From Myxococcota bacterium (lineage in GTDB: Bacteria; Myxococcota_A; Polyangia; Polyangiales; Houyiibacteriaceae): a stretch of 64,000 nt of DNA. Every line of letters begins with the position of its first letter. Position 1 is the first letter of the stretch. Of the stretch, positions 672 to 53,529 are shown piece after piece. Made by a program: the position numbers and the translations under genes. The notes beneath the pieces are model-generated. The model made no database searches. It had not been told where the DNA came from and was given only the letters and a program-made list of their open reading frames with translations. The DNA lies in NCBI GenBank assembly GCA_039030295.1, contig JBCCEK010000003.1, positions 180 through 64,179 on the forward strand, given 5' to 3'.

Positions 672-783
672 CAGCAGACTGAGAACGCGGTGGAAACGGC
701 GCCGAAAGGCGCCGTTTCTGTTGCAGCCCACCAACGAAGCGAACAAGGCTCACCAGGAAGGCGACACGAGGATCACACAGGCG

Positions 784-4342: not shown

Positions 4343-4357
4343 CGCGTAGGGTATGCC

Positions 4358-10392: not shown

Positions 10393-11286
10393 TTGACGCA
10401 AGACGCAGACGTACCCGAACACGAGCTCTTCGAGTCGAACCGGAAGCACCTGACGGCGCTTGCGTATCGAATGACGGGTTCGCTCGCCGAAGCCGAGGAC
10501 ATCGTTCAGGAGGCGTATCTACGTTGGAAGCGATCGGGTGCGGATACCGTCCGCCACCCGCGCGCGTTCCTTTCAAAGACCGTCACCCGCCTGTGCCTCG
10601 ACTTCCTCAAGTCGGCGAGAAAGCGTCGCGAGAGCTATGTGGGCCCCTGGCTCCCTGAGCCCCTCGTGGGCTCGGTCGCGGCACCCGACAGTGACGCGGG
10701 TGAACTTGCCCGGGATGTCTCGACGGCGCTCATGCTTGCGCTTGAACGACTCACCCCACTCGAGCGCGCCGTGTTCCTTCTACGCGAGGTGTTCGACGTC
10801 GACTACCAAGACGTCGCCGGGACCGTCGGGCGAAGCGAGGACGCTTGCCGACAGCTCGTGTCGCGCGCCAAGAAGAACATCGCGGCGGCCCGCCCGCGTT
10901 ATCAGCCCAGTCGAGACGAGTGCGAGCGTGTCGTCGAAGCCTTTGGCGCTGCAGTCATCACTGGCGACCTGACGCAACTCGAGGCGACCCTTGCCGACGA
11001 TGCGATTCTGTACGCGGACGGGGGAGGGCGTGTTCGATCGGCACTTCGACCGATCCATGGTGCAAACCGGATCGCTCGGTTCTTCATCGGGGTCACCAAG
11101 AAGTCGCCGTTCTCGAGTGACATGCAAGTCTTGCCCCGGCTGGTCAACGGTTCGCCGGGCTTCGTGATCGTCGACGCCGGCGAGGTCGTTCAGACCATGG
11201 CGTTCGAAGTCACAGAAGGTCGTGTCCGAACCATCTACGCCGTGCGCAATCCGGACAAACTGGCGCGGCTGTCTGTCCTGTCGTAG
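10393..11286 (+). CDS. ECF41-group (SigJ-like) RNA polymerase sigma factor with fused C-terminal regulatory domain
   Basis: Sigma-2 region LTALAYRMTGSLAEAEDIVQEAYLRW, and sigma-4 region with LTPLERAVFLLREVF. The roughly 100-aa C-terminal extension carries the DGGG and NPDKL motifs described for ECF41. TTG start lies 9 nt after the upstream stop. Confidence 0.85.
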   Translation: MTQDADVPEHELFESNRKHLTALAYRMTGSLAEAEDIVQEAYLRWKRSGADTVRHPRAFLSKTVTRLCLDFLKSARKRRESYVGPWLPEPLVGSVAAPDSDAGELARDVSTALMLALERLTPLERAVFLLREVFDVDYQDVAGTVGRSEDACRQLVSRAKKNIAAARPRYQPSRDECERVVEAFGAAVITGDLTQLEATLADDAILYADGGGRVRSALRPIHGANRIARFFIGVTKKSPFSSDMQVLPRLVNGSPGFVIVDAGEVVQTMAFEVTEGRVRTIYAVRNPDKLARLSVLS

Positions 11287-11308: not shown

Positions 11309-13078
11309 CTAGGGAGCGGCGCCGGGGAGGAAGGCGCCGAACTCGATCGCTTTGCTGACGTCTCCGTTCACACGCAGTTTGCCTTGCACGAACGCGATCT
11401 GCGGATCGAGGTGACCGCGGGTGATTTGTGCCAGGTGTTCGTCGCGAATGGTCAGGGTGGCGTCTGGTCCGCTTGCCTTGCCTTGTGTGACCGATTTCTC
11501 GGAAACGTCGACGACCCAGTCTTGGGCATTGTCTCCCGTGATCTCGAACTGAAAGGTCCCTGTCGTGGGCGAGCCTTCGCTGGGATTCGCCAACGCCGAC
11601 TGGACGCTTTCGAAGAAGCTCGCCATCTCCTCGGCCGAGACCGTCGACTTCGGCTTTCCGTTGGTGGGCTGCGTTGCGCGAAACCGGAGCACGTCTGCCT
11701 CGAGCTCGTTGGCTGACTCGCGCAGGTAGCGCGCGAAGGTGTCGATATCCGGCATGACTTCGGGGCACGAAGTCGGGCTGATCGACAACACGCCGTTGTA
11801 GCTCAAGACGGTGATCAACAGGCTCATCCCGTCCATCACGGGCGCCATACCCATGCTCGAAAGAAGCCGGTGCCCTGCCACGTACATGTCGTGCTGAGGG
11901 CCTGGCACGTTCGTGATGACCAGATTAAACGGCGGCCGATGTCGTTCGGCGATTCGGAACCGCGAGTAGAGCCGAGACGCTTGGCCTGCCAGACCAAACG
12001 GCACGAACTCGAACACGTCAGCCATCGTCTGTGCGCCTACGGCGTTCTGGTACGACTTGCCCGATTTCGTGTGTCGCTTGATCTCCTGGATCCGTTCGAT
12101 CGGGTCGGCGATGTCGGTCGCAAGCTGGATCGACATGCCAGAGACCTGGTTTCCCATCTGCCCTCGTTGGCCCTCCGAACGGGTCGAGATCGGAACGAAG
12201 GCGACAAGGGGGTCCGACGGTAGTGCGCCCTTGTCGAGGAGGTAGCGCCGGAGCGCGCCCGCGCAGATCGCCAAGACCGCATCGTTGAGCGTGCAGCCCA
12301 TGGTTTCCTTGATGACCCGAACACGGTCAAACTCGAGGAGCGCGGTGTTCCAACAACGTTCCTGCGAGATCACTTTGTTGAGGGGAGTGTGGGGTGCAGA
12401 GAACGGCGCTGGGGGCACCTCCATACCCTTGATCCGCGCCTCTTTTCCGGCGCGCATCACGTTGGCGAGGTCACGTGCGAGGGCGGGAAGGCGAGCCGGC
12501 TTGCCGGCGATCTTCTTGGCGACTTGCCGAAGGACCGTGAGCTCGTTCGGGGCCGGGTTTGGCTTGCGCGTTTCGGGGGGTTCGACCTTGCGCGGCTCCT
12601 TAGTCATGTCGAACAGGATGCTCATCATGTCCGCGCCGGAGACACCGTCGATCGCGGCATGGTGAACGCGATTGATCATGGCCACGGATCCCGGTGGGAC
12701 CTGCGGGATCTTATCGAGACCCTCGATGAACAGCATGTCCCAAAGAGGCCGCTGTCGATCGAGTGGCATGCTGAAGGTTCGTGCGGCGACCTGTCGAAGT
12801 TGCCGCCAGCCGCCGGGCCGCGGCAGCCCGATGTGTTGGATGTGGCGGTCCAAATTGAAGTCTGGATCGTCGATCCAGTACGGCTTGCCGAGACCCAATG
12901 GCACCATGACGAGGCGCTGCTGCATCCGCGGGACGAGATGGATTCGGGACGCGAGCATCTCTCGGAAATCCTCGAAACGCATCGAGCCTTCGAAGACAAG
13001 CACGCTCCCGACGTGCATGGGCGTGCGCGGGTCTTCCATGTACAGGAACGAGGCATCCATGCCGGACAGGGGCTGCAT
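11309..13078 (-). CDS. Wax ester synthase/diacylglycerol acyltransferase (WS/DGAT) fused to a C-terminal SCP2 sterol-carrier domain
   Basis: Catalytic HHAAIDG (HHxxxDG). N-terminus MQPLSGMDASFLYMEDPRTPMHVG is typical of WS/DGAT. The C-terminal ~100 aa (FQFEITGDNAQDWVVDV...LDPQIAFVQGKLRVNGDVSKAIEF) matches SCP2. Start moved to ATG 13078. Confidence 0.85.
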   Translation of the reverse strand: MQPLSGMDASFLYMEDPRTPMHVGSVLVFEGSMRFEDFREMLASRIHLVPRMQQRLVMVPLGLGKPYWIDDPDFNLDRHIQHIGLPRPGGWRQLRQVAARTFSMPLDRQRPLWDMLFIEGLDKIPQVPPGSVAMINRVHHAAIDGVSGADMMSILFDMTKEPRKVEPPETRKPNPAPNELTVLRQVAKKIAGKPARLPALARDLANVMRAGKEARIKGMEVPPAPFSAPHTPLNKVISQERCWNTALLEFDRVRVIKETMGCTLNDAVLAICAGALRRYLLDKGALPSDPLVAFVPISTRSEGQRGQMGNQVSGMSIQLATDIADPIERIQEIKRHTKSGKSYQNAVGAQTMADVFEFVPFGLAGQASRLYSRFRIAERHRPPFNLVITNVPGPQHDMYVAGHRLLSSMGMAPVMDGMSLLITVLSYNGVLSISPTSCPEVMPDIDTFARYLRESANELEADVLRFRATQPTNGKPKSTVSAEEMASFFESVQSALANPSEGSPTTGTFQFEITGDNAQDWVVDVSEKSVTQGKASGPDATLTIRDEHLAQITRGHLDPQIAFVQGKLRVNGDVSKAIEFGAFLPGAAP

Positions 13079-13197
13079 ACGGACCTCCAAACAACGAATC
13101 AGGGGTTCGACGAGCGTACACCCCACGGCCGGGTCGGCCAAGGGCGGAGATCGAGCGACCTTGCTCCAAGAGCCGCCCGTTGGGGCCGAACCGAGCT

Positions 13198-13965
13198 TCA
13201 GTTGGTGACGTGAATTGCGCCGTCGACCGGTAGGATCACGCCATTGATGAAGGACCCGGCTTCACTTGCGAGCAGGACGGCCGGCCCGGCGAGCTCTTCG
13301 ACTTCCCCGAGTCGCCGGGCGGGCATGGTCTGTACGTAGGCTTGACCCTCGGGTGATTCGAAGAACTCGGCGTTCATCTCGGTCTTGAACCAACCCGGCG
13401 CGATGGCGTTCACGCGGATCCCGTAGCGCATCAGATCGATCGCAAGGGCACGGGTGAGCTGAATCACCGCGCCCTTGGATGCGCAGTAGGCGGACTGTCC
13501 CTTCTGAACGCCCAGCCCGAGGACCGAGGCGATGTTGATGATGCTGCCTGGCTGCTTGGCTTCGATCAGTCGCCGCGAACCTTCCTGAGCTACGTTCCAC
13601 ACCCCCTTGAAGTTGGTGTCCATCACGAAGTCCCTCGACGCCTCGTCGATCTTCGTGAAGCTCTTCGGGTCAGCCACACCCGCGTTGTTGACGATCACGT
13701 CCACGACGCCGACTTCTCCTTGGGCGCGCTCGAAAGCCTCGTCGACGCTGCTTCGGTCCGTCACGTCCATCTTCACGGCGAACGCCTTGCCGCTGGTCGC
13801 CGCGATCTCCGCGACCAGGCCCTCGAGACGCTCGATGCGGCGGGCGGCGACGACGACGGTCGCGCCTGCGGAAGCCATCGCAAGACCGAGACCTCGACCG
13901 ATGCCCGACGATGCGCCGGTGACGAGTGCGACCCTGCCGTTCAATGAGAACCGTGTTCCATCCAT
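13198..13965 (-). CDS. Classical SDR oxidoreductase (FabG/gluconate-5-dehydrogenase-like)
   Basis: VALVTGASSGIGRG, NNAG, and the active site SAYCASK. Start moved to ATG 13965. Confidence 0.85.
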   Translation of the reverse strand: MDGTRFSLNGRVALVTGASSGIGRGLGLAMASAGATVVVAARRIERLEGLVAEIAATSGKAFAVKMDVTDRSSVDEAFERAQGEVGVVDVIVNNAGVADPKSFTKIDEASRDFVMDTNFKGVWNVAQEGSRRLIEAKQPGSIINIASVLGLGVQKGQSAYCASKGAVIQLTRALAIDLMRYGIRVNAIAPGWFKTEMNAEFFESPEGQAYVQTMPARRLGEVEELAGPAVLLASEAGSFINGVILPVDGAIHVTN

Positions 13966-32180: not shown

Positions 32181-33058
32181 TGCCTGAGGACTTCGACTGG
32201 GATCCGCTTCGGGTGTTCGTCGCGGCTGCGGATACCGGCTCCCTGTCGGGCGCCGCGCGTGAGGTCGGGGTGAGCCAACCGACAGCTGGGCGGCAAGTCC
32301 AAGCGCTTGAGTCACAGCTCGGCGTGCAACTCTTCGCCCGAACTTCGCGCGGACTTCAACTCACCGACACCGGCATGGCGCTCCTCGAGCACGCGCGCAC
32401 GATGGCCGCGGCTGCCAACCGACTCGCCCTCGCCGCGCAAGGCCAGGCCGAGAGCGTCGCTGGCGTCGTTCGAATCACTGCGAGCGAGGTCGTCGCCACC
32501 TATACGTTGCCCCCGGTCCTCGTTGAGCTCCGAGCGGCCGAGCCCGAGATCGAAATCGAGCTCGTGGCGTCGAACGCGACGGAGAACCTACTCGAACGCG
32601 AGGCTGACATTGCCGTGCGGATGTACAGGCCGACGCAAGCCGACGTCATCACGCGAAGCATCGGAGAGATCGGCGTCGGCGCCTACGCAGCCGAGTCGTA
32701 CATCGCCCGTCATGGTTGCCCCATCGAGCCCGAAGATCTCCTAGAGCATGACGTGGTGGGCTACGACCGGGACGACACGACAATTCGCGGTTTTCGCATG
32801 GCTGGAGTGGAAGTGACACGACGGTTCTTTCCCGTGCGCACCGACGACCAAGTCTTGGCGTGGCATCTGGTCGTGGCGGGCTATGGGATCGGTTTCATGC
32901 AGGTTCAGATCGGTGACGCCGAGCCCAAGGTGCGCCGCGTATTGCCCGACCTGTCGCTGCCCACGCTTCCGATGTGGTTGACGGCGCACTCGGAGCTCAA
33001 GACGAACCGACGTATTCGGCGAGTCTACGATTTCCTTGCCGAGGCCCTCGCGCGCTAG
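32180..33058 (+). CDS. LysR family transcriptional regulator
   Basis: HTH AADTGSLSGAAREVGVSQPTAGRQVQALE. Its TAG stop and the convergent PMK stop share the palindrome CTAG at 33055-33058. Confidence 0.85.
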   Translation: MPEDFDWDPLRVFVAAADTGSLSGAAREVGVSQPTAGRQVQALESQLGVQLFARTSRGLQLTDTGMALLEHARTMAAAANRLALAAQGQAESVAGVVRITASEVVATYTLPPVLVELRAAEPEIEIELVASNATENLLEREADIAVRMYRPTQADVITRSIGEIGVGAYAAESYIARHGCPIEPEDLLEHDVVGYDRDDTTIRGFRMAGVEVTRRFFPVRTDDQVLAWHLVVAGYGIGFMQVQIGDAEPKVRRVLPDLSLPTLPMWLTAHSELKTNRRIRRVYDFLAEALAR

Positions 33059-34050
33059 CGCGAAGACGCTGCTCGACCAGCTGACACGTCGTCACCGTAG
33101 TCGCGGCGCCTGGGTTCATCCGCACGGACGCCTGGCACGCCCCACGGGAGGTCGATTGGAACGAGCCCGTGTCCGGAGCATCGTTCGAGGAACGAAGCAC
33201 GCGCGCCCGGATCCGAGAAGAACGCCACTGCCGCATCACCGCCTCCTGCGCCGCAGGGTTTCGCGGCTCCTCCTTCGAGGGCCGCCCATTCCGCGACGGC
33301 GTCGAGCTCACGAGTCACGATCGGGGCCCCGGTGTGGTTCCCAAGGCCCCGCATCGCCTCGTGGTACTGCGCCGCGCAACGGATCACGGATCTCACATCG
33401 CCTTCTCGGAACGCGCGCGCGAACGCGCTCCCAAGCTCGACAAGCGAGGCCATGAGCCGCGCGTATCGGGACGCGTCCCGGACTTGGAGGGCCTTGACGC
33501 GGGAGACCAGATCGGATGTACGCACCGGACTCGCGGTCCAGACCAGCGCCGGCGCCAACGACGCGGGACCCCTCACGGGGGAGGCATCGACGACCGCGTC
33601 TTCGCCGATGCGAAACTCGAGGAAGCCACCGTAGGTCGAGGCGGCCACGTCGACCCCGCTCCCCTCGGGCGCGACGGCGCGGTGTCCCTCGAGCGCAGCC
33701 GCGAACACGCGGTCGCGAATGCCGGGCTCGTCGAGGTCGAACCCTCGCGCCACCGCCACCGCTGCCGCGGCCCCGACTGCTGCTGCCGCCGACGACCCAA
33801 GGCCGAGCTTTTTCCCGTCTCGAAAAAGGGCGCTTGCATCGAACCGCAACGGAGGTGTGATCTTCCCGAACTCGCGCTCCGATGCGGCCGTGGCTGCGAC
33901 CGCCTCTGGGCCTGGTCGATGGTACGCCGTCGATGGTGGTTCTCTTTCGACACGCAGCCGTCGCCCGACGGCGGCGACGACCGCGGTTCCACCCTCGAGT
34001 ACGCCGTACTCGCCGCAGAGAAGGGCCTTCCCGGGGGCGGAGATCAACAA
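33055..34050 (-). CDS. mvaK2: Phosphomevalonate kinase (GHMP kinase)
   Basis: SAPGKALLCGEYGVLEG, and the GHMP motif KLGLGSSAAA. Start assigned to TTG 34050 or 34047, overlapping the upstream TGA. The long ORF-track N-terminus overlaps the decarboxylase and was rejected. Confidence 0.8.
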   Translation of the reverse strand: MLISAPGKALLCGEYGVLEGGTAVVAAVGRRLRVEREPPSTAYHRPGPEAVAATAASEREFGKITPPLRFDASALFRDGKKLGLGSSAAAAVGAAAAVAVARGFDLDEPGIRDRVFAAALEGHRAVAPEGSGVDVAASTYGGFLEFRIGEDAVVDASPVRGPASLAPALVWTASPVRTSDLVSRVKALQVRDASRYARLMASLVELGSAFARAFREGDVRSVIRCAAQYHEAMRGLGNHTGAPIVTRELDAVAEWAALEGGAAKPCGAGGGDAAVAFFSDPGARASFLERCSGHGLVPIDLPWGVPGVRADEPRRRDYGDDVSAGRAASSR

Positions 34051-35036
34051 ACGGAGACCTCGATGCCTGGCCCAGGAGACGCGACGATCACATCGTGCAC
34101 GCCTGGCGTCTGCCGGAGCGCTGCCCGGACTTCCGAGGCGTCCTTCGCTTCGCAAAGTGTCTTGACGTGAGGCCCGGCGTCCATCGTCGCCCATGCCGAC
34201 ACCCCGTCCGACCGAAGCGAACGGACCGTACGAAGCGCCGCTACGGTGCCGGGCCCCCAGTAGAGGACGCTCGGCCGCGACGTCATCGCGCAGGCATGAA
34301 ACGCCATCGTGCTTTGTTCCATCGCCTCGCCTAGCGTCGTCAGATCTTTCTCCCGAACCGCGGTTCTGATCGTTTCGAAGAGCTCGGGGGCAGACTCGAT
34401 CCACGCGTGGTAGAGCGGCGACGTGTTGCGGGAGGCCGTCATCGCTTCCGTGGATCCAATCGCCTTGGGCCCGCGCTCGGTCAGTGCGACCAATAGGCGA
34501 ACGTCCCAGTGGTCCGCGGGCGCAAGCTGCACGGCGTGAAGCAGGTCGTCTCCGGGAATCCCGGCGCCGAGCTCGACGAAACCTCCGAAGATCGACCGGG
34601 CTGCGGATGCGCTCGACCTCCGGGCCAACGCGCTCAGAGCACCGTGCGGCAGTGTCTTGGCAGCCGCGGCTGTTGAGGCAGCAGCCAGGGCCGCGAAGCC
34701 CGAGGCGCTCGAAGCCAGGCCCGCGGCGGTCGGGAACCTATTGATACTCTCGACCCGTGCGTGGCAACTCAAGCCAGAGATCGCCCGCGTCCGGTCGAGG
34801 AGTCCCGTCACCCGCCGAGTCTCGCTTGCCGACCCCGGTCGGCCATCGAGGATCAACTCGTCTTGGGATAACGTTGGGTCGAAATAGACCTCGGTCTCGG
34901 TGACCAACTCGCCGAGGGTCAACGACAGGCTCGGGACCGCGGGTAGGTTGTAGACGCGGTCACTTTTGCCCCAGTACTTCGCGAGCGCGATGTTCGAGCA
35001 TGCGACCGCGCGCCCCACACTCGCCTCACGCAGCAT
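34044..35036 (-). CDS. mvaD: Diphosphomevalonate decarboxylase
   Basis: ACSNIALAKYWGK, FPTAAGLASSASGFAA. Start ATG 35036 overlaps the mevalonate kinase stop by 11 nt. Confidence 0.9.
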   Translation of the reverse strand: MLREASVGRAVACSNIALAKYWGKSDRVYNLPAVPSLSLTLGELVTETEVYFDPTLSQDELILDGRPGSASETRRVTGLLDRTRAISGLSCHARVESINRFPTAAGLASSASGFAALAAASTAAAAKTLPHGALSALARRSSASAARSIFGGFVELGAGIPGDDLLHAVQLAPADHWDVRLLVALTERGPKAIGSTEAMTASRNTSPLYHAWIESAPELFETIRTAVREKDLTTLGEAMEQSTMAFHACAMTSRPSVLYWGPGTVAALRTVRSLRSDGVSAWATMDAGPHVKTLCEAKDASEVRAALRQTPGVHDVIVASPGPGIEVSVC

Positions 35037-35943
35037 GACCGAGCTCCTCGACGAACGCATCGACGGGTAGGGTGTCTCGAACTCGGATCGCGTGATCGGC
35101 ATCTTGCGCCAACGCGATCACACAGCCTCCGCCTCCGGCGCCAGTGACTTTGGCACCCAAGGCTCCCGCGCGTCGGGCCGCCTCGCACAAGTTCTCCACC
35201 TTCGGCGTGCTCAACCCGAAGGTGCGAAGGACTCGATGGTTGCCGTCGAGCGTTCGCCCGAGTGTGTTCAAGTCACCGTCTCGGATGGCCGCTTCGGCTT
35301 GATCGACCAGGTGCCCGATCTGCTCTAGCGCGCGTCCGCTCTCGACCGGTTCCGTGCGGCAACGCTCCGCGACCGCTTCGACCATCACCTTCGTCTCCGA
35401 GCTCTCGCCGCTGTGGGCCACCACCACGTAGAACGGAGCTCGCGAGCGCACGACTTGAACCGACGACCCACGTTGAAACCGCAGGAGTCCGCCGACCGCC
35501 GCGGCCGTGTTGTCGATGCCGGAGGGCGCCCCGTGGAAAACACGCTCCCAAGACAGGGCCAACTCCGCGAGGTCGGCGCGCTCTCGACGGACTCCGAGAT
35601 ACCGGTCGACCGCGTCGATGACCGCCACGCCAAGCGCGGCAGAGCAACCGAGGCCGGCGCCCGGGGGAAGCTCTACTTCCGCGTGAACCTCGAGGGGAGG
35701 GCGTTGTCCTTGGAACGCGAGGGCGCGATCGAACGCGCGTGCCAACGGCTCACTTGCTGCGGCATTCGGCTCGACTCGAACGCCCCACGGTTCAATCGAG
35801 AGTCGATCGCGAGGCCCCAACGTGGCGCGTGCACGAACGCCGCGTCGAACACCGGCGGCGATCGCGGGTTGACCGTGTACGACCGCGTGCTCACCGACGA
35901 GGATGACCTTGCCACCCCCGAAGCCTAGAGTCCGATCGCTCAT
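35026..35943 (-). CDS. mvk: Mevalonate kinase
   Basis: GGGKVILVGEHAVVHG, PPGAGLGCSAALGVA, KVTGAGGGGC. ATG 35943 lies 1 nt after the upstream stop. Confidence 0.9.
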   Translation of the reverse strand: MSDRTLGFGGGKVILVGEHAVVHGQPAIAAGVRRGVRARATLGPRDRLSIEPWGVRVEPNAAASEPLARAFDRALAFQGQRPPLEVHAEVELPPGAGLGCSAALGVAVIDAVDRYLGVRRERADLAELALSWERVFHGAPSGIDNTAAAVGGLLRFQRGSSVQVVRSRAPFYVVVAHSGESSETKVMVEAVAERCRTEPVESGRALEQIGHLVDQAEAAIRDGDLNTLGRTLDGNHRVLRTFGLSTPKVENLCEAARRAGALGAKVTGAGGGGCVIALAQDADHAIRVRDTLPVDAFVEELGHAA

Positions 35944-35944
35944 G

Positions 35945-37063
35945 CTACGTGCGGCGGACGGTGAGCTTGTCGGCCAGTTCCTCGAGCATTCCGAGCCCTT
36001 GCGGATTGAAGAGATCAGCACCTACTGCACAGCGAGCTTCGTCGCATAGCCCGGCAATCCTCAGCTCGAGTCGCTCAACGACCTCCGTTTCCCGGAGGCA
36101 TTGCTGTGCCAAGGCCAGCTCCTCGCTCGTGGCGTTGCGGTTCCCGAAGACCGACTCGACTGGCTGCCGAGTCGCCAGTTCGGTCGTGCTACGAAGCTCC
36201 GCCATGACACTGCTCAGCTTCCCGTGAGGGATGTCCATCCCGGGCTTGCCTGTGTCCTCCGCATCGCCGAGGGCTCCAAGCAGGTCGTCGCGGATCTGAA
36301 ACGCTTCGCCGATCGGGTTCGCCCAAGCGGTCAGTGCGGCGATCTGCTCCGCGGTCGGATTTCCGAGGAGTGCACCGAGGATGAGTGGACCTCTCACCGA
36401 GTAGCTGGTGGTCTTGAGGGCGTGCATTCGAGACACGTCTGGGTCGCCCGTGAGATCGAGTTGCTGACCGCAGTAGACCTGTTTTTGAAGCTCGATGAAG
36501 GCGCGCTGTGCGTCCGTCCACGATTGCATGGGAAAGGGCGCCTCGACGAAAAGCTCCCACGCATAGGTCGAAGCGAGGTCTCCCGCGAGAACGCCGAGTG
36601 CAGCGCCGAGATGCACGTCGTCGTGACGGTGTTGAAGACTCGCATGCACCGCCGCCCCTCCTCGACGTACTTCGTCTCCGTCCATCCAGTCGTCGTGGAT
36701 GAGCAGATAGCTCTGCAGCAGTTCGAGCGATGCGCTGAGGTCGACCAGTCGGTCCATCCCGTGCCCGGGACGGACGCATCGGTATCCGGCTGCGGCGACG
36801 GCAGGTCGGAGCCGCTTCCCGCCTCGCATGGTCAGCGCCTCGATCTCCTCCACCAACTCGAGCGTGGGCGGCGAGACGTTCTTCGTCTCACGGCGCTTGT
36901 CATCAAAGAACTCCGCAAGGTGCACGTCTACCTCGAGTCGCACGATCTGCAGCCAGTGCGTCGGTCGCGACCCGAGACGCGGGGAGTCCCCGGTCGATGC
37001 CGCGCGATCGAGTTCACGCTGGCGGTACTTGGGTACGACCTCGGTCAGTTGGGATGCTCTCAT
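35945..37063 (-). CDS. Polyprenyl diphosphate synthase, probable farnesyl diphosphate synthase
   Basis: First Asp-rich motif LLIHDDWMDGD, second FQIRDDLLG. Tyr lies five residues before the first motif. ATGA overlap with the cyclase stop. Confidence 0.8.
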   Translation of the reverse strand: MRASQLTEVVPKYRQRELDRAASTGDSPRLGSRPTHWLQIVRLEVDVHLAEFFDDKRRETKNVSPPTLELVEEIEALTMRGGKRLRPAVAAAGYRCVRPGHGMDRLVDLSASLELLQSYLLIHDDWMDGDEVRRGGAAVHASLQHRHDDVHLGAALGVLAGDLASTYAWELFVEAPFPMQSWTDAQRAFIELQKQVYCGQQLDLTGDPDVSRMHALKTTSYSVRGPLILGALLGNPTAEQIAALTAWANPIGEAFQIRDDLLGALGDAEDTGKPGMDIPHGKLSSVMAELRSTTELATRQPVESVFGNRNATSEELALAQQCLRETEVVERLELRIAGLCDEARCAVGADLFNPQGLGMLEELADKLTVRRT

Positions 37064-39036
37064 GACAGTCTCCGTGGGCTATCAGGACCTGCGTCCGCCC
37101 GGTGTTTGAGCGCGAGCGCCATGACCGGGAAGTACTGCCGGTACAGGCGGTAGTTGAGGAGGGCGGTCTCGAAGAAGACCCCCACGAATTCGTCGTCTCT
37201 CCAGAGGCCTGATGACTGCTGGCGTCGTTCAAGCCACGCGGCGGCCCTCTCGATGGCGTTCCGATCCGGTTCGTTGGCTTCGATGAGGGTGATCATCGCC
37301 CACGCGGTTTGAACCACCGAACCTTGCGACGCTTGCACGTAGCCCCGGCTCGGGCCGCTCGTGTAGTCCTCGCCCCAAGCGCCGTCGCTTCTTTGGTGTG
37401 AGAGGAGCCAACGGCAAGCATCGCGAACGTGAGCGTCGGTAGCGGGAACACCGGCTGCCAGCAACCCTCGAACGCCAAACATCGTCCCGTAGATGAAGTG
37501 CACGCCCCACGCGGCGTCCCAAGTGCCGTCGTTGTTCTGGACGCGTCGAAGAAGGTCACCTGCACGCGTGATCGCAGCGTCGAGGCGCACGCGCATGAGG
37601 TCCGGGTAGTGTCTTCGCAGGTCGCTTAGCGCCATCAGGCAAGAGGCCGTGCATTCGACGTACGAGCGCTCGGTCATGCAGCGTCCGAACATCTCAGCGG
37701 GGTTCATCCATTCGAGTGGGAATCGCGTCTTTGCGGGTTCGTAGCTTCCAAAACCCCCGTCGTGGTTCTGGCAGCGAAGGATGAAGCGTGCTGCCCTGGC
37801 GGCGTTCTCCTTGCCGATCGCCTCGGGCCGTGTCCGCAAGAGCCCGATCAACGCCTCGGCCGTGCAGTCGCTCACTGGCCAGCCGTGGCCGACTTCGGAG
37901 AAGCACCAACCGCCATTCGGTTGGATCCGATGGGCCGCCTCGTAGTCGTACGCTGCGGCGCCCACCTGTTGTGAGGCGAGGAACGCGGCGCTCCGCGAGA
38001 CGGACTCGCTGCAATCGACGTGCGCGACTTCCGAGAGCGCTTGGAGCGCGAACGCCGTGTCCCAACACACGCTTCCGGCTCCTGCGACGCGCGAGCCCTC
38101 GTTCGCGTCCTCCCAGAACCAATCTTCGAATCGGTCCGTCGCGCGCTCGAGGTGCGGGTCAGCCGGGTTCTCCGCCCACAGTGCCAGCATGATCAGAAGC
38201 CCGTTCACAGGCGAAAGACCGAGGTAATCGCTTGCGCGAAGATGGGCGCGCATGTCGGCGAGGAGACGTGTCGTGAGCGTACGGCGAAGCCGGCGCGAGT
38301 GAACTCGGTCGTAGCCGCGTGCGACGGCGAACACAGCGCGAAGCGCCGGCCCTGCCGCAAAGGGGGCGTCCTCAGGTCGAATGTCGTTGCGGTAGCGGGC
38401 GAATGAAACCCGAGCGAAGCGCCCCCCGTAGAGCTCGTTCTCGAGCTCGTCGACCACCGGCCCTCGCTCGGCGACGAAGCGCCTGCCGAACAGGACCGCG
38501 AGCCCAAGGTAGATCTGACGGGTGTGGCAGTAGTAGTTCGAAGGGTGCAGGGGCACCCACTCCGGGAGCGCCCACGCCTCGGGAACGATCGGGTTCACCC
38601 CGTCCCAGTCGTAGAGCCCAAGGGTCGCCAACCAGACTTTTCCCCAAGTCGGGATCCGCTCCACACGCTCTGAGGCGAAGAGGCGTCGCGCGTCTTCGAG
38701 CCAAGGCGTTTCGGCCGGGGCGCCCAGAATCCGTGCCGCGACGTACACCAACGTGGTCACGTAGAGGTTCCCGTCATCGTACGGGTGGAGCCCCCATAAA
38801 CCCGAGTCGTGCCGAGTGACCCTGAACTGGGTCAGGAGTCCCGCTCGTCGCTCATCACCAAGCTCCTGCTTCATGATGTGCGACGCGATCGCGTACTGGG
38901 CCGCGAGCATGGGGTTCCATACGCACTCGCCTTCCCAGCTCCCGTCGTCCCTTTGGAGGCGGATCAGCGCGTCGAGGCCTCGATCCAGAGGCGTCTGTGC
39001 GTGAATCGAAAGATGGGTTGTTGCCGCGGCAGGCAT
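37060..39036 (-). CDS. Oxidosqualene cyclase (lanosterol/cycloartenol synthase type)
   Basis: Catalytic GWPVSDCTAEAL (the OSC-type VxDCTAE, not the hopene-cyclase DxDDTA). WDTAFALQAL, and repeated QW-type motifs (e.g. RLQRDDGSWEG, RCQNHDGGFG, RVQNNDGTW, SHQRSDGAWGE). Start ATG 39036 lies 5 nt after the HMGR stop. The Arg-rich 217-aa ORF extension was rejected. Confidence 0.9.
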   Translation of the reverse strand: MPAAATTHLSIHAQTPLDRGLDALIRLQRDDGSWEGECVWNPMLAAQYAIASHIMKQELGDERRAGLLTQFRVTRHDSGLWGLHPYDDGNLYVTTLVYVAARILGAPAETPWLEDARRLFASERVERIPTWGKVWLATLGLYDWDGVNPIVPEAWALPEWVPLHPSNYYCHTRQIYLGLAVLFGRRFVAERGPVVDELENELYGGRFARVSFARYRNDIRPEDAPFAAGPALRAVFAVARGYDRVHSRRLRRTLTTRLLADMRAHLRASDYLGLSPVNGLLIMLALWAENPADPHLERATDRFEDWFWEDANEGSRVAGAGSVCWDTAFALQALSEVAHVDCSESVSRSAAFLASQQVGAAAYDYEAAHRIQPNGGWCFSEVGHGWPVSDCTAEALIGLLRTRPEAIGKENAARAARFILRCQNHDGGFGSYEPAKTRFPLEWMNPAEMFGRCMTERSYVECTASCLMALSDLRRHYPDLMRVRLDAAITRAGDLLRRVQNNDGTWDAAWGVHFIYGTMFGVRGLLAAGVPATDAHVRDACRWLLSHQRSDGAWGEDYTSGPSRGYVQASQGSVVQTAWAMITLIEANEPDRNAIERAAAWLERRQQSSGLWRDDEFVGVFFETALLNYRLYRQYFPVMALALKHRADAGPDSPRRLS

Positions 39037-39041
39037 CGGTC

Positions 39042-40250
39042 CTACTCCGCGGCGGCGATCTCGAATCGCCGTGCGTGCAGATTCATGTGCCCGCTCTGGA
39101 TCCCCTCGGACGCCAGTGCGGAGAGCGCGCCGAGGTTCTGCGCCAACCCCACGGCCGCCATCACCATCGCGAGCTCGCCTGCAGTGTCGACGTTGAGGAG
39201 CTTTCGGAGCACGCGAAGGGCGGGCTGGACCGAAGTAGACCCCCCGACTGTCCCCACGGCCATCGGTACTTCGATCTCGCCGTGGAGCATCCCGTCGACT
39301 TGCCACCAGCGTGTCAACGGTTCGTAGCGGCCGTGGCGGGCGGCGTAGGCGTGCGCGCCTGCTTCGAGCCCGCGCCAGTCGTTCCCGGTGGCGACGCCGA
39401 CCGCGTCGATCCCGTTCATGACGCCCTTGTTGTGCGTTGCCGCGCGGTAGGGGTCGACCGCCGCGAACTGATAGGCTTCGACGACCCCATGGGCAACTTC
39501 GGCGCCCGAGTGTCCGCGGCGTTCGAGAAGTTCTTCTTGAATCGCGCAGCTCGCCCGCGCCATTCGCCGATCGGACAGGTTGCTCAGGATCCGAAGACGC
39601 ACCCGGCCTCCCGTCAGCTCTTCGATGATCGGCGCGACGCCCTCGGCCATGTCGTTGACCAGGTTCGCGCCCATGGCGTCGCGGCAATCGACGAGCAGGT
39701 GAACGACCAGCATCGGCGGGTCTGAGTCGAGAATCCGCACTTCGAGCGACTTCGCGCCCCCGCGGCGCGCCACCATGTTGGGGTGACGGTCATTCGCGAC
39801 TTGCAGGATCCGGTCTGCCTGTCGTTCGATGGCATTGCGTGCTCCGAACGGGTCTGGCACTTCGAGAACCTGCACTTGCGCGATCATCAAGGACTCGCTC
39901 GCGGTCGCGGAGAAGCCACCCGACTCGCGGATCACACGGGCCATGTTGCTGGCCGCGGCGACTACCGAGGGTTCTTCGACGACCATCGGTACCACGTAGT
40001 CGCGCCCGTTGACCTGGAAGTTCAGCCCGAGACCCACGGGCATCTTGAGAACGCCGACGCAGTTTTCGACCATCTTGTCGGCGATCTCGGCGTCGGTCGG
40101 GTCTTCGCACCCGAGCGCAGCGAGGTCTTCTGGGTCTAGAGAGAAACGTTCCGCGAGTTGGTGATGGCGACCCGGAAGGTCAAGCCGATAGAACCCGGGA
40201 ATGCGAGAGGAGGGACGAAGCGGTGCGCGATGGCTTGCTCGATCGGTCAT
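39042..40250 (-). CDS. mvaA: HMG-CoA reductase, class II
   Basis: Near-colinear with the Pseudomonas mevalonii enzyme as recalled: VPMVVEEPSVVAAAS, DAMGAN, AAVDPYRAATHNKGVMNGIDAV, GLAQNLGALSALASEGIQSGHM. ATGA overlap with the squalene synthase stop. Confidence 0.95.
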   Translation of the reverse strand: MTDRASHRAPLRPSSRIPGFYRLDLPGRHHQLAERFSLDPEDLAALGCEDPTDAEIADKMVENCVGVLKMPVGLGLNFQVNGRDYVVPMVVEEPSVVAAASNMARVIRESGGFSATASESLMIAQVQVLEVPDPFGARNAIERQADRILQVANDRHPNMVARRGGAKSLEVRILDSDPPMLVVHLLVDCRDAMGANLVNDMAEGVAPIIEELTGGRVRLRILSNLSDRRMARASCAIQEELLERRGHSGAEVAHGVVEAYQFAAVDPYRAATHNKGVMNGIDAVGVATGNDWRGLEAGAHAYAARHGRYEPLTRWWQVDGMLHGEIEVPMAVGTVGGSTSVQPALRVLRKLLNVDTAGELAMVMAAVGLAQNLGALSALASEGIQSGHMNLHARRFEIAAAE

Positions 40251-41323
40251 GCGGCATCCATGGTGCGGGGCCCGCCGTTGGTGACCGAGTTGGCCGCCAT
40301 CAGTCGAGCGACAGGAGTCCAGAGCGACTCGTAGTCCGAGCGGAGGAGGGCATCGTCTTGGTAGCTCGCGGCGCACCGAGCGATGACCTCTTCCACTTCC
40401 GCGCGACTCACTTTGACTTCTTGGCCATCGGTGAACATCGCGTCGTTCCCGTAGGCGAGGACGACAGTCCTCACGGCGAGCCACAGAGGCAACAAGCAGA
40501 ACAGTCGGATCTCTCGATGCTCCGCCGGGATCGTCAGTGCGTACTCGAGCGCGCTGTCCAGTTTGGTGCGCGCGAGGTGGAACATCGGAAAGACCGCTCG
40601 ATGTGCAGCCGCGAGCTGATCGGGATCGAGAAGATCACGACTCCGCAGTCCTTGCTTTCGGCAAAGGGACCGAGGCACGAACGACCATCCGCGCTGCATG
40701 TCGTCGGTGATGTCTTTCAGGATGTTGACGAGCTGAAGGCCCGTACCGAACGCCTCGGCGTGCTCGTACAGCGCGGCAGACAGCTCCGATTCGGGTGACG
40801 TACCCATCTCGGCGAGGAAGAGCTCGGTCAGCATGTGACCCACCGTGCCTGCGACGAAGTAACAGTACCGTTGCAGATCGTCGCTCGTTGTTGGAGCGAC
40901 CACACCGTCGGCGTCGGCGCGTCGATGGCTGTAGATCTCCATCCCATGAGCCATCTCATCGACCCAACGAACCACGGCGTCGCGCATCGGGGCCGGCACG
41001 GTATCGAGAACGGCGATCACGCGATCGATTCGGCGGCACAGTTCGATCTCTTCGACTGGGGACCCGGCGACATCGTTCCATTGATGCCCAAACTCCGACG
41101 GATCGACCGTTCCGGCGAGCACGCCGTGGAACGCGCGGTAGCGCACACTTCGCTCGTCGAGAGAGAACGAGGCGTTGTCTTCGACCGCATCGACGATTCG
41201 GCAGAGCAGGTATCCGCACGTCACGGCCCTCCTCAGGTCTCCAGGTAGCACCTCGATCGGTCGGGAGAATGTCCGGGACACTTCCCGGAGACTGCCTGCG
41301 CAGAAGTCCCATTCAGCTGACAT
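40247..41323 (-). CDS. Squalene synthase (farnesyl-diphosphate farnesyltransferase)
   Basis: SRTFSRPI, YLLCRIVDAVED (DxxED), and NILKDITDDMQRGWSFVP (second Asp-rich box). Single-enzyme SQS type. Confidence 0.9.
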   Translation of the reverse strand: MSAEWDFCAGSLREVSRTFSRPIEVLPGDLRRAVTCGYLLCRIVDAVEDNASFSLDERSVRYRAFHGVLAGTVDPSEFGHQWNDVAGSPVEEIELCRRIDRVIAVLDTVPAPMRDAVVRWVDEMAHGMEIYSHRRADADGVVAPTTSDDLQRYCYFVAGTVGHMLTELFLAEMGTSPESELSAALYEHAEAFGTGLQLVNILKDITDDMQRGWSFVPRSLCRKQGLRSRDLLDPDQLAAAHRAVFPMFHLARTKLDSALEYALTIPAEHREIRLFCLLPLWLAVRTVVLAYGNDAMFTDGQEVKVSRAEVEEVIARCAASYQDDALLRSDYESLWTPVARLMAANSVTNGGPRTMDAA

Positions 41324-42692
41324 GCTTTTCCTCCTCGACGAAGACCTCAGTTGGGTCGTCAGGGCGTGCCCAGGATTCGGGTGCTGCCCACGACACCGAC
41401 CGTTGCCGCATCAAACTCTGGCTCGGGTGAACGCTCGCCCACGGCCACCGAAGCCAGCCCGCGAGCTCGCGCGCCGTGGCGGCGTCAGAAAGAAGCACCC
41501 CGGCGCCGGCTCGCAGTGCAACGCGTGAGAAGGCCCGAACGAAATCGACTCGGCTCGTCGTAGCCGCGCCAAGCAGATCCATGGTTCGGTTGCGTTGCAT
41601 CGAGCTCGCGCGCCAGGTGCTGAAAATCGAGTCGCGAATCGCGATCGCCCCCACGTCCTCGCGAGCAAACGCCTGGTAAATCGCGTTCGAGAGGAGTTCC
41701 GGCACGTAGCTTTCGGCAGCCCGCTGTGCGGCATACGAGCTCAGCGAGCGGGCTCCGGCGAGGGCCTCTGCATCGAGGAGCGACATCGTGATGCCCATGG
41801 CGGTGAGCGGGTGGAACACCCCGGCCGCATCGCCGACGAGCGCCACCCCGCGGTCGGTTTGGTAGCGTCGCGGGCGGAACGTATTCGCGGCCCATCCGAT
41901 CGACGCATCTCCGGCGCCGCGACGGACGCCTTCGCGGAGCGCAGGTGGGAGCACCTCCGCGTACGACTTCCAGATCCAATCGTGGCTCTTCGTGCTTGCG
42001 CGCGCATCGTGCGGAACGTCGATGCACATCCGTACGGCGTTGTCCCCGATGCGATAGGCCAGCGCCGGCCCTGGTCCGCCCGTGATCACATGCCCGTACT
42101 CTTCGAAAGGAAGTTCGGTATCGCGCACGACCAGTCCGGCCATGACCGAGATCGAAACCTTCTCGCTGACTGCACCATCACCGAGGATCTTGCGCGCCGA
42201 GCGCCCCGTTGCGATGACGACGAGAGGTGCGTTGACCACGCGCGACTTAGACCTCTGAGTCAGCGTCACGAAGCGGCCCCGGACCTCGCTCGCGCGCACC
42301 CCTTCGAGATAGTCGACGCCTCTCGTCTGACTCACGCGCGCGCGCAGATGGGTCACCAAGGTTGCGTGTTCGCAGGAGAGACCGCGCTCGCCGCCGCCAT
42401 ACTCGAGGGTGATCGGACCGAGGCCATCGTTTGGAAACACGACGAAGCCGCGCCCGGTAGCGCCGTGCTCCAGTCCATCTAAAAGTTCGAGATTACGAAG
42501 GATTCTAGCCCCTTCGGGATGCACCCACTCCCCAGCGAAGCGCCGCGCTGCGTTCGGGTTCGACTCGACCAGGAGAACGCTCGCACCTCGCCGAGCGAAC
42601 GCCGCGGCGGTTGCGCAGCCCGCCGGTCCTGCACCGATAACCACGGTGTCGTACGCCGATCGAATGTCGCCCAAGTCGAACGTTGGCTGCAC
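41313..42692 (-). CDS. Squalene monooxygenase (epoxidase), FAD-dependent
   Basis: DTVVIGAGPAGCATA dinucleotide fold, GEWVHPEG, LVGDAAGVFHPLTAMGITMSLLDA. GTG start. Overlaps the SQS start by 11 nt. Confidence 0.85.
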   Translation of the reverse strand: MQPTFDLGDIRSAYDTVVIGAGPAGCATAAAFARRGASVLLVESNPNAARRFAGEWVHPEGARILRNLELLDGLEHGATGRGFVVFPNDGLGPITLEYGGGERGLSCEHATLVTHLRARVSQTRGVDYLEGVRASEVRGRFVTLTQRSKSRVVNAPLVVIATGRSARKILGDGAVSEKVSISVMAGLVVRDTELPFEEYGHVITGGPGPALAYRIGDNAVRMCIDVPHDARASTKSHDWIWKSYAEVLPPALREGVRRGAGDASIGWAANTFRPRRYQTDRGVALVGDAAGVFHPLTAMGITMSLLDAEALAGARSLSSYAAQRAAESYVPELLSNAIYQAFAREDVGAIAIRDSIFSTWRASSMQRNRTMDLLGAATTSRVDFVRAFSRVALRAGAGVLLSDAATARELAGWLRWPWASVHPSQSLMRQRSVSWAAPESWARPDDPTEVFVEEEKHVS

Positions 42693-43014
42693 GGTTTCCC
42701 CTGGCGCTTAGTATTCGCGCGCCGCGTCCGGCAGCTACAAGATTCGCTTCGGTGGATCGAACGTTGGTGTCGATCGTCCCAAAGCGCGCACGAACGGTTT
42801 GACAACTTCCCAATCTTTACAGCGTGTTGCGTTGCTGTACGTAGACGGATCAGCTTTACAATGCGTTGGCTATCGTGCTGTTGATCACGGTTCAATGATC
42901 GCTGCGGACCGCTGGCGAGATCTCACGAACGAGTCACACGTTTCTCGCGCTGCCAGTTACCGCGCGCGCTACAAACAATCGCGTCACATCGTCTCAAAGA
43001 GGAGAACACGTGAA
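42693..43014. promoter_or_regulatory. Divergent control region between the squalene-epoxidase operon and the HMG-CoA-synthase operon
   Basis: The only sizeable non-coding gap in the module. Exact 11-mer TCGAACGTTGG at 42676-42686 and 42757-42767. GATCGA-N9-TCGATC at 42755-42775. TTGACA at 42799-42804. Two CTTTACA..GCGTTG..TGCTGT units at 42815-42838 and 42854-42881. SD AAGAGGAG lies 10 nt before ATG 43015. Confidence 0.4.
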
Positions 43015-44112
43015 ATGAGCGCGAACCCTGCAGGCATTGCATCCATTGGTCTTCAACTTCCCAGGCTCTTCATGCCGGTGACAGAGCTCGCTGATCTTCG
43101 TGGGGTCGATCCGAACAAGTTTACAAAGGGTTTAGGCTGCGGTGAGATCGCACTTTGCGATCCCGACGAAGACGCCGTCACCTTGGCCGTTGGCGCTGCG
43201 AAACGTGCCCTCTCGCGTTGGGACGGGCTTGCCGAAGACATCGGGCTCATCGTTGTGGGCACGGAGAGTGCGAAGGACATGAGCCGTCCGCTCAGTGCTT
43301 GGGTCGCCGAGGAGCTCGGCCTCTCTGGGGGGATCCGGTCCTACGAAGTGAAGCACGCGTGCTATGGCGGAACGCTCGCGTTACGCCAGGCGCTCGAGTG
43401 GAAATGGTCGGGCGCTTCTGCAGGCAAGGCGGCGCTCGTGATCGCTTCCGACGTCGCTTTGTACTCGCTTCAAGATCCGGGCGAGCCCACGCAGGGCGCC
43501 GGGGCGGTCGCGATGATCGTAGACGAACCCCTCGTCGCACGCATCGAGAACCGCTCCTATCCGTTCAGCAGCCCGGCGTTCGACTTCTGGCGCCCGGTCG
43601 GCGATCCGTTCCCGTCCGTTGAAGGGCAGCTTAGCCTCGACTGCTACAAGCGCGCGGTCGAGGAGTGTTACGGCGCGATGGTGGGCGACCGAGATGCGCG
43701 CGCTGTCCTCGGGGCCTTCGAGGCGATGGCGTTCCACGTCCCGTTCCCGAAGATGGTCAAGAAGGCGGTCCTCCACCTGGCCGAGCAGCTCGGGTGGACC
43801 GAAGCCGAGGGTGAGGCGCTTTACGCGGAGAAGGTCGACTCGACCATGGCGTGGAACCGTTCGGTTGGAAACGCCTACACGGCGAGCCTTTGGATCTCGG
43901 TTGCCGGCACGCTCTCGGGTATGGCGGAGGGCACCCGCATGACGGCGCTCTCCTACGGATCCGGCTACGGCGCCGAGCTCCTCGAGCTGGTCGCAGGCCC
44001 TGCTGCCTCGGCTGGTGCGTGGGCAACCGACATCGAGCAGGATCTCCGTCAGCGCCGCCTGGTCGACAAAGCGACTTATGAATCTCTTCGGGGTCATGCA
44101 CGCGCGAGCTGA
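43015..44112 (+). CDS. mvaS: HMG-CoA synthase
   Basis: VGTESAKDMSRP, and the catalytic-Cys context EVKHACYGGT. Start moved to ATG 43015, which has a strong SD. Confidence 0.9.
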   Translation: MSANPAGIASIGLQLPRLFMPVTELADLRGVDPNKFTKGLGCGEIALCDPDEDAVTLAVGAAKRALSRWDGLAEDIGLIVVGTESAKDMSRPLSAWVAEELGLSGGIRSYEVKHACYGGTLALRQALEWKWSGASAGKAALVIASDVALYSLQDPGEPTQGAGAVAMIVDEPLVARIENRSYPFSSPAFDFWRPVGDPFPSVEGQLSLDCYKRAVEECYGAMVGDRDARAVLGAFEAMAFHVPFPKMVKKAVLHLAEQLGWTEAEGEALYAEKVDSTMAWNRSVGNAYTASLWISVAGTLSGMAEGTRMTALSYGSGYGAELLELVAGPAASAGAWATDIEQDLRQRRLVDKATYESLRGHARAS

Positions 44113-45909: not shown

Positions 45910-45918
45910 CGCACCGGC

Positions 45919-46950: not shown

Positions 46951-47181
46951 CGATATCCCCTACAAACGAATGAAACTTTGCAGTCCGTTACCACACGCGA
47001 GGAGAGGGACAACGAGCGTTTGACCGATCTCGCGGGTCCCGGAGGTCCGAGATCCGGACCCCTTAACCGTTCGGCCCACTCCGAGGACCTCTCATTGCGG
47101 CGACTCGACCCTTGACCGCCGTTCAGCCGGCACCGCGGGCAGCCTCACTTTTTTCTTTTCTGTGTCAGTATCCGCCGTTCG

Positions 47182-48534: not shown

Positions 48535-48545
48535 GGAGAAGAAGC

Positions 48546-50048: not shown

Positions 50049-50107
50049 GCCTCGCGTTCGTCCCCATCGGGGACCGTGCTAGGGTGCGCGCCCTCGGAGG
50101 ACCACGC

Positions 50108-51112: not shown

Positions 51113-51149
51113 CGACTCCACAGCCGACAAGTTGGTGTATGCTGCACCC

Positions 51150-52088: not shown

Positions 52089-52113
52089 GCGCCACACGAC
52101 GGCGGACGCGCGG

Positions 52114-53478: not shown

Positions 53479-53529
53479 CGAGCACACGGTCGGGTTGCAG
53501 GACTCTCGATCTCGCTTCTATTCGTTATA

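Follow-up and report, generated by a model that had tools for sequence, protein, structure and literature searches.

WS/DGAT acyltransferases such as AtfA/AbWSD1 of Acinetobacter baylyi ADP1 (7nxg) and Ma2 of Marinobacter aquaeolei (6chj) share an HHxxxDG motif and a two-domain CAT-like fold, and they end at about 455–463 amino acids without an SCP2 domain. In eukaryotes, a C-terminal SCP2 domain is attached to fatty acyl-CoA enzymes, as in SCPx (thiolase-SCP2) and the peroxisomal MFE-2/HSD17B4 (dehydrogenase-hydratase-SCP2). We analyzed a 64,000-nucleotide stretch of DNA (hereafter referred to as the window) from a Myxococcota bacterium of the order Polyangiales (contig JBCCEK010000003.1), in which a single gene encodes a WS/DGAT body followed by an SCP2 domain. 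The window also contains a sterol biosynthesis cluster, and a first-pass annotation had proposed that the fusion protein is a steryl-ester synthase. We show below that the fusion defines an abundant protein family of two phyla, and that the protein is probably a neutral-lipid synthase, producing triacylglycerol (TAG) and possibly wax esters, in which SCP2 would act as a tethered carrier of acyl-CoA or some other lipid.

The fusion gene lies on the minus strand and has an ATG start; in the list of open reading frames (ORFs) its product has 589 residues and begins with MQPLSGMDASF. A TTG at 13141, upstream of this ATG, opens the longest ORF, but the homologues all start at the ATG instead. A scan for promoters and terminators around the gene gave none exceeding the shuffle expectation. 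The features of the gene are as follows.

11309..13078, minus strand: complete WS/DGAT-SCP2 fusion gene, the clade A paralogue of the family described below (ORF, Pfam and NCBIfam matches, N-terminus as in homologues)
12275..13069, minus strand: WS_DGAT_cat domain, residues 4–268 (PF03007, E 1.5e-64, 218.7 bits against a cut-off of 23.6; fold match to 6chj and 7nxg)
12644..12664, minus strand: HHAAIDG catalytic motif, residues 139–145 (translation)
11702..12157, minus strand: WS_DGAT_C domain, residues 308–459, with the NVPGP motif (PF06974, E 6e-32, 111.1 bits against a cut-off of 20.7)
11573..11701, minus strand: variable linker, residues 460–502, comprising the tail of the final WS/DGAT helix, a disordered segment and a helix that leads into SCP2
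11330..11572, minus strand: SCP2 lipid-binding domain, residues 503–583 (PF02036, E 3.3e-14, 53.5 bits against a cut-off of 21.3; matches to SCP2 structures in the Protein Data Bank, PDB)

As to architecture, the first-pass annotation was right. The domain searches that it had suggested found WS_DGAT_cat, WS_DGAT_C and SCP2, all over their cut-offs, and the NCBIfam model TIGR02946 scored 467.6 bits against a cut-off of 309.95; the full WS/DGAT body with its HHAAIDG motif is thus confirmed, and the peptide that had been quoted as an SCP2 signature is encoded at 11330–11572. AtfA and Ma2 are homologous to residues 1–460 of the window protein (7nxg, E 1.5e-55; 6chj, E 1.5e-52) and are about 26–27% identical to it in structural alignment. 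Beyond this body the window protein extends by about 130 residues, made up of the linker of about 43 residues and SCP2. The SCP2 part matched solved domains with E-values from 3e-9 to 1e-7 (4uei, 2.9e-9; 1c44, 1ikt and 2qzt, about 5e-8), among them those of SCPx, SCP2, MFE-2, insect SCP2-like proteins and a Yarrowia ‘fatty acid-binding protein’.

Structure prediction agreed with these assignments. An AlphaFold2 model computed from 78 sequences of all three clades of the family had a pLDDT of 79.2 and a pTM of 0.72, with the expected secondary structure in both parts; the 32 close homologues alone had given an unusable pLDDT of 57.8. In a Foldseek search the best matches of the model were 6chj and 7nxg (E 5e-33 to 3e-30, TM 0.75–0.78 on the target), followed by condensation domains of nonribosomal peptide synthetases, and the modelled body has the two-lobed CAT/condensation-like fold. 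In the SCP2 block, which has a pLDDT of 75–90, the model places strands at residues 508–514, 519–524, 529–532, 540–545 and 568–572 and helices at 482–497, 546–553, 559–564 and 574–587, the five-stranded alpha/beta fold expected of SCP2. The pLDDT dips in the linker, at residues 473–475.

The protein is probably an acyl-CoA-dependent O-acyltransferase that converts chiefly diacylglycerol (DAG) to TAG, with wax esters as possible products, and presumably shares its acyl-CoA:alcohol/DAG chemistry with AtfA and Ma2. The general base would be the histidine of HHxxxDG, as in AtfA. On its flexible and poorly conserved linker, SCP2 would serve as an accessory module for hydrophobic ligands, most likely capturing long-chain acyl-CoA (or DAG, or the product) where membrane or lipid droplet meets the cytosol-facing enzyme, at their surface, and presenting it to the catalytic tunnel. 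SCP2 domains bind fatty acyl-CoAs, and eukaryotic SCP2 is fused to enzymes that use acyl-CoA. We favor a carrier of acyl-CoA or other lipid because of the analogy with these fusions, which also supplied PDB matches of the SCP2 part (4uei, 1ikt and 6z1w, E 1e-7 to 3e-9). SCPx and MFE-2 differ from the window protein in that SCP2 is joined to enzymes of beta-oxidation in peroxisomal proteins with a PTS1 signal, whereas its partner here is a neutral-lipid acyltransferase. If SCP2 delivers acyl-CoA or DAG, the eukaryotic SCP2-enzyme fusions would have a counterpart in bacteria, and the protein would be a natural design for raising flux in engineered wax-ester or TAG production.

To place the fusion in a wider context, we surveyed 185,579 species-representative genomes, which yielded 195 relatives, and drew clades from the best 80 of these. 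All 80 align through query residue ~584, except two that are cut or masked, and the family is compact, its members being at least about 49% identical. Clade A, the type found in the window, comprises 9 metagenome-assembled genomes (MAGs) of Polyangiales/Myxococcota with 78–97% identity; clade B, about 43 MAGs labelled Polyangiales, ‘Sandaracinaceae’ or delta-proteobacterial with 58–63% identity; and clade C, 28 Bacteroidota loci (Saprospiraceae, Lewinella and Runella) with 49–53% identity. With a GC content of 35–54%, the clade C loci are genuinely foreign to Myxococcota. In a neighbor-joining tree, clade C is monophyletic, and clade A is monophyletic and nested in clade B. Eight of the nine clade A MAGs hold a clade B paralogue, about 60% identical, on another contig (loci L005/L050, L006/L049, L007/L047, L009/L018, L010/L032, L011/L036, L053/L019 and L055/L045). 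From its sequences, clade A looks like a recent lineage-specific duplication within clade B, which itself appears to be vertically inherited in a Polyangiales lineage. An exact look-up of the window protein gave no record; the window is a congener of MAG P01_B01_bin.6, with 97% protein and ~85% DNA identity.

Two of the clade B entries call for comment. The gene of L058 (CP070713.1, the 3.54-Mb chromosome of ‘Myxococcales bacterium bin5’) ends at residue 498 owing to a masked run of N over SCP2 and is not a natural variant without SCP2. L048 (CAXMND010000066.1; 63% identity), labelled ‘uncultured Coxiellaceae bacterium’, is probably a mis-binned Polyangiales contig; the GC content of all clade B loci is 62–66%.

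Searches of protein collections gave a consistent picture. Among 5.8 billion proteins, the best 120 homologues of the window protein (at least 59% identity) all carry PF03007, PF06974 and PF02036. A search started from a clade C protein recovered over 120 additional clusters with an identity of at least 66% and with names of Bacteroidota, Saprospiraceae or Microscillaceae, and SCP2 was present in all of them but one partial sequence. The fusion thus occurs in at least 28 species-level MAGs of Bacteroidota, in over 120 protein clusters of that phylum, and in hundreds of 90%-identity clusters over Polyangiales and Bacteroidota together. Among 1.84 billion representatives at 50% identity we found 19,069 WS/DGAT relatives; of the best 150, one is a full-length fusion confirmed by Pfam (P0241) and three fragments reach SCP2, the others being plain WS/DGATs of 450–520 residues that end at query residue ~460 or proteins with other extensions. 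Since a single full-length representative stands for the fusion, it arose once and forms one orthologous family. We rejected repeated, independent fusion events, as this was the sole full-length fusion among the best 150 of the 50%-identity library and the other long WS/DGATs are extended differently. Those other C-terminal extensions (P0249, P0295 and P0343) are two DUF1508 repeats, an esterase domain and a long low-complexity basic tail; by sequence, C-terminal accessory modules are a recurring theme among WS/DGATs. A literature search retrieved no paper describing a WS/DGAT-SCP2 fusion, only papers in which ‘SCP2’ appears to denote the Streptomyces plasmid. The enzyme family is well known, but its variant with SCP2 is uncharacterised and annotated only generically.

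We then compared 79 full-length sequences of the three clades. The residues H139, H140, D144 and G145 of the catalytic motif are invariant in 78 family members, as are N390–P394 of the NVPGP motif. All three clades share 170 conserved, identical columns, of which 19 fall in SCP2, a pattern that indicates purifying selection on this domain across two phyla. The linker is the sole fast-evolving segment, with the window protein 23% identical to clade B and 17% to clade C there. At positions where clades B and C share a conserved residue, clade A has only five fixed differences, all conservative (L/I, R/K, F/L, F/M and S/G), and so there is no hint of a re-tooled acceptor pocket in clade A.

The genomic context of clade C bears on the substrate. 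Its gene order comprises a BTAD regulator, a 180-residue coiled-coil protein, the fusion gene, an 1100-residue protein of Acyltransferase-GPAT_C-HAD-Acyltransferase architecture, one or two alpha/beta-hydrolases, an ArsA/Get3-like ATPase, two small coiled-coil/HHH proteins and GpsA. Elements of this set were found at 12 of the 28 clade C loci. Where at least 9 kb of downstream sequence was available (15 loci), the protein with the glycerol-3-phosphate acyltransferase (GPAT) domain was present at 8, GpsA at 7 and a hydrolase at 9. Independent gene calls and precomputed Pfam annotation confirmed the set on a 309-kb contig and on the 5.76-Mb Saprospiraceae contig JAWKLJ010000001.1 of GCA_041392805.1 (L094 and L095), where the cluster spans L094:8533-20840 and L095:8551-17999; it was also seen at L060, L062, L064, L071, L074–L076, L080 and L083. 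Judged from these families, the set would constitute the Kennedy route to TAG. GpsA, a glycerol-3-phosphate dehydrogenase, would supply glycerol-3-phosphate, GPAT and lysophosphatidate acyltransferase (LPAAT) would convert it to phosphatidate, the HAD part, as a putative phosphatidate phosphatase, would release DAG, and the fusion protein, acting as a diacylglycerol acyltransferase, would complete the pathway to TAG; the hydrolases are candidate lipases.

A comparable locus is Rv2482c–Rv2485c of Mycobacterium tuberculosis, which encodes the GPAT PlsB2, a HAD-PlsC protein, the acyltransferase (Tgs) Rv2484c and LipQ and has been interpreted as serving TAG synthesis (PMC10699116). Like the clade C loci, it places GPAT, HAD, LPAAT and esterase functions beside the acyltransferase. 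It differs from them in that the GPAT, HAD and LPAAT parts are fused into one 1100-residue protein in clade C, where GpsA and coiled-coil proteins are added, and in that Rv2484c is without SCP2; the window gene itself stands outside any such cluster. The clade C set suggests a putative compact, self-contained module for TAG and lipid-droplet formation in Bacteroidota, a phylum seldom regarded as oleaginous, and to our knowledge no such module has been described in it.

Taken together, the catalytic body, the conserved SCP2 domain and the clade C context lead us to consider the window protein a probable neutral-lipid synthase with SCP2 as a tethered carrier. Several points weigh against this assignment. 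The Kennedy-type context is confined to the Bacteroidota clade, and to about half of its well-covered loci, and the contexts in Polyangiales are uninformative: that of clade B is conserved and of a housekeeping nature (DnaJ, NadA, HemN, SLT transglycosylase, FtsX/MacB-type permease and OtsA), and that of clade A is variable. The clade C pathway relies on a HAD part that is only inferred to be a phosphatidate phosphatase. In addition, WS/DGATs are promiscuous, so that sterols could be among the physiological acceptors in a host that produces them, and the maintenance of two paralogues in the window lineage leaves room for some division of labor.

The Bacteroidota cluster, together with the linker, bears on a different role for SCP2, in which catalysis would be as proposed above and the domain would anchor a soluble enzyme to the surface of lipid droplets or membranes or would remove the product. 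WS/DGATs work at the interface of membranes and lipid inclusions, the linker that attaches SCP2 is long, variable and flexible, and the small coiled-coil proteins and the ArsA/Get3-like ATPase of the Bacteroidota clusters could be droplet-coat or targeting components. SCP2 domains are, however, ligand-enclosing carriers and not known membrane anchors, and we consider this role unlikely.

The acceptor could also be a hydrophobic alcohol other than DAG. In such a case the protein would synthesize wax esters or acylate some other hydrophobic acceptor (a fatty alcohol, an isoprenoid alcohol or a hydroxylated lipid), and SCP2 would bind this water-insoluble acceptor rather than the acyl donor. This idea draws on the homology to AtfA and Ma2, which makes the protein a member of a bifunctional family, and on a weak, sub-threshold Pfam match to the SCP2-like Alkyl_sulf_C (E 1.1e-3). 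Bacterial SCP2-like domains recruit alkyl or isoprenoid chains in the alkylsulfatase SdsA1 and in UbiJ/UbiT. An extended short-chain dehydrogenase/reductase (SDR) with a weak NAD_binding_4 match is encoded 6 kb from the fusion gene (4358-5437). This SDR is nevertheless generic, falls far under the cut-offs for HpnA and SdmB and is present in close relatives only; none of the clades has a bona fide fatty acyl-CoA reductase conserved beside the gene; and the Bacteroidota context supplies DAG rather than a fatty alcohol. We consider an alcohol acceptor of this kind unlikely.

The proposal of the first-pass annotation concerned sterols, and sterol synthesis is indeed encoded in the window, as it had stated, at 20–40 kb from the fusion gene. 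The assigned features of this region are as follows.

33055..53487, strand unassigned: mevalonate and sterol biosynthesis cluster (gene-level family matches)
~37060-39039, minus strand: oxidosqualene cyclase (OSC; TIGR03463, 669 bits, against 255 for hopene cyclase)
45919-46950: sterol C-24-type methyltransferase, Sterol_MT_C (Pfam)
51024-52088: Rieske/KshA_C oxygenase with a weak SdmA match
52114-53487: P450 of the sterol cluster

The nearest named homologues of the window OSC are annotated as lanosterol synthase or 2,3-oxidosqualene cyclase. The mevalonate part encodes phosphomevalonate-type and mevalonate kinases, diphosphomevalonate decarboxylase, HMG-CoA reductase, HMG-CoA synthase and IDI-2, and the cluster further encodes farnesyl diphosphate (FPP) synthase, squalene synthase and an FAD monooxygenase. 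In L085 and L088 the syntenic orthologues of this monooxygenase bear the squalene-epoxidase domain PF08491. The cluster is syntenic in the related MAGs L085, L087 and L088. This gene content suggests that an uncultured Polyangiales lineage makes side-chain-methylated, C4-demethylated sterols. Many OSC homologues at ~50% identity (P0175–P0239, for example P0232 of Polyangium aurulentum) have at least 1100 residues and combine PF08491/FAD_binding_3 with the cyclase domains; these are single-polypeptide fusions of squalene monooxygenase and OSC, found in Myxococcota and cyanobacteria.

With a full sterol pathway in the same window, the fusion protein could be a dedicated steryl-ester synthase, in which SCP2 hands endogenous sterol to the WS/DGAT active site for storage or detoxification. 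The distance from OSC to the clade A gene is similar in two related MAGs, being ~24 kb in the window, ~25 kb in JBCDFZ010000003.1 and ~23 kb in JBCCHE010000005.1 (locus L005), and both the syntenic sterol clusters of Polyangiales relatives and the confinement of clade A, so far, to the window lineage as an extra paralogue fit such a role. The spacing is, however, seen only in genomes ~85% identical to the window in DNA (as measured for JBCCHE010000005.1), so that it reflects synteny by descent. When OSC homologues (the top 120) and fusion homologues were paired by the length of their contigs, a weak proxy because each length is that of the longest contig in a cluster, only the two congeners matched (170920 and 203607 bp) and none of the Mb-scale clade B contigs did. 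We searched the 84 family loci (gene ±10 kb) by tblastn with the window OSC, squalene monooxygenase, squalene synthase, HMG-CoA reductase, FPP synthase, HMG-CoA synthase, IDI and diphosphomevalonate decarboxylase as queries and obtained zero matches. The syntenic sterol clusters of the related soil MAGs (L085, L087 and L088) likewise lacked a fusion gene within 10 kb. At 80% identity, clade A genes occur in unrelated contexts, flanked by GST and MscS genes or by a peptidase C92 and an SRPBCC protein, and in the window the 20 kb that separate the fusion gene from the sterol cluster are filled with unrelated genes (WD40/beta-propeller, methyltransferase, LysR regulators, alcohol dehydrogenases, acyl-CoA dehydrogenase, RPE65 oxygenase, DUF3570 and NmrA). 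Given that linkage does not extend beyond two congeners and that the clade A contexts differ, the proximity of the fusion gene to the sterol genes is best read as lineage-specific synteny, not functional clustering.

Other observations also disfavor a dedicated sterol acyltransferase. The fusion is abundant in Bacteroidota, where it lies within TAG-synthesis clusters, and the clade A substitutions described above are few and conservative. The first-pass annotation had named commonness of the fusion in sterol-free bacteria as an argument against its own proposal; the abundance in Bacteroidota is established here, and the sterol-free status, which derives from published lists of producers, probably holds. 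A list of Bacteroidetes with OSC from 2016 contains only Fluviicola and Eudoraea (PMC4919349), Saprospiraceae and Lewinella are absent from the searchable supplements that list bacterial sterol producers, and our search of papers and supplements for OSC in Saprospiraceae/Bacteroidota found nothing either way. The eukaryotic sterol O-acyltransferases, namely ACAT/ARE of the MBOAT family and the LCAT-like PSAT, resemble the window protein only in the hypothetical steryl-ester product: ACAT/ARE are polytopic membrane proteins and LCAT is an alpha/beta-hydrolase, and the Pfam scan of the fusion protein gave no MBOAT or LCAT homology, returning only WS_DGAT_cat, WS_DGAT_C, SCP2 and the weak Alkyl_sulf_C match.

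Published work on bacterial steryl esters bears on the proposal. Sterol-degrading Actinobacteria and Cellvibrionales make them, with WS/DGATs as the suspected enzymes, and AtfA, which is without SCP2, is cited there as having steryl-ester synthase activity upon heterologous expression (bioRxiv 10.1101/775916). For the Myxococcales that synthesise sterols, the same source calls storage in ester form ‘not known’. Base hydrolysis freed no extra sterols from Enhygromyxa salina, whose conjugates appear to carry ether linkages (PMC10202945); an ester-bound sterol pool was thus not detected there, although no E. salina sequence was among the best 80 genome matches of the fusion, so that this organism may not carry it. 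Sterol acylation by a WS/DGAT is therefore chemically plausible, does not require SCP2 and is undocumented in sterol-producing bacteria.

The ligands of the SCP2 family range over sterols, fatty acids, acyl-CoAs and phospholipids. Because SCP2 is a generic binder of lipids and acyl-CoA and plain WS/DGATs can acylate sterols, the domain is neither necessary for nor diagnostic of sterol use, and an ‘SCP2 sterol carrier’ label near a sterol cluster should not be taken as evidence of sterol esterification. We consider a dedicated steryl-ester synthase very unlikely. The first-pass annotation is thus partly supported: its architecture, motif and cluster stand, and its step from SCP2 to a sterol acceptor lacks support, given the linkage in two congeners only, the glycerolipid/TAG cluster of the abundant Bacteroidota fusions and an active site without signs of change. 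The annotation had itself marked the sterol link as inference and had mentioned delivery of the acyl donor as an alternative. A narrower version, in which clade A alone was recruited as a physiological acyl-CoA:sterol O-acyltransferase with SCP2 presenting endogenous sterol, comes to mind because the extra copy is found only in a sterol-producing Polyangiales lineage and lies ~24 kb from the sterol cluster in three congeneric genomes. We regard it as slightly more doubtful still; if true, clade A would be the first case of a steryl-ester synthase that can be assigned to a gene in a bacterium with sterol synthesis of its own.

The immediate neighbors of the fusion gene are the following.

13198..13965, minus strand: classical SDR oxidoreductase, generic, directly upstream of the fusion gene (Pfam and NCBIfam)
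10393..11286, plus strand: SigJ-type ECF sigma factor, convergent with the fusion gene (NF007214, 366.8 bits; synteny only in L005 and L006)

Adjacency of this SDR and the fusion was seen only in L005, L006 and L007, and the order SDR-fusion-SigJ-TetR is restricted to the window and its closest genomes; the SDR is probably not a functional partner. We rejected both it and the extended SDR at 4358-5437 as partners in sterol or fatty-alcohol metabolism, as both are generic and adjacent to the fusion in the closest relatives only.

The extended SDR matches Epimerase, 3Beta_HSD and NAD_binding_4. A DUF2855 protein and a di-haem DHOR/cytochrome c peroxidase-like protein are also encoded 6–10 kb from the fusion gene (window 3236-5437 and 721-3117; L001:16208-20801), and this arrangement of extended SDR, DUF2855 and DHOR is kept in close relatives only. 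Directly downstream of one of the clade A genes at 80% identity, L092:11817-12422 encodes an SRPBCC/Polyketide_cyc2 (START-like) protein, whose fold likewise binds hydrophobic ligands. On the way from the fusion gene to the sterol cluster of the window, an RPE65-family carotenoid/apocarotenoid cleavage oxygenase adjoins a zinc-alcohol-dehydrogenase-type oxidoreductase (27188-29637), and the pair is kept at L088:17508-20545, there with a TetR regulator.

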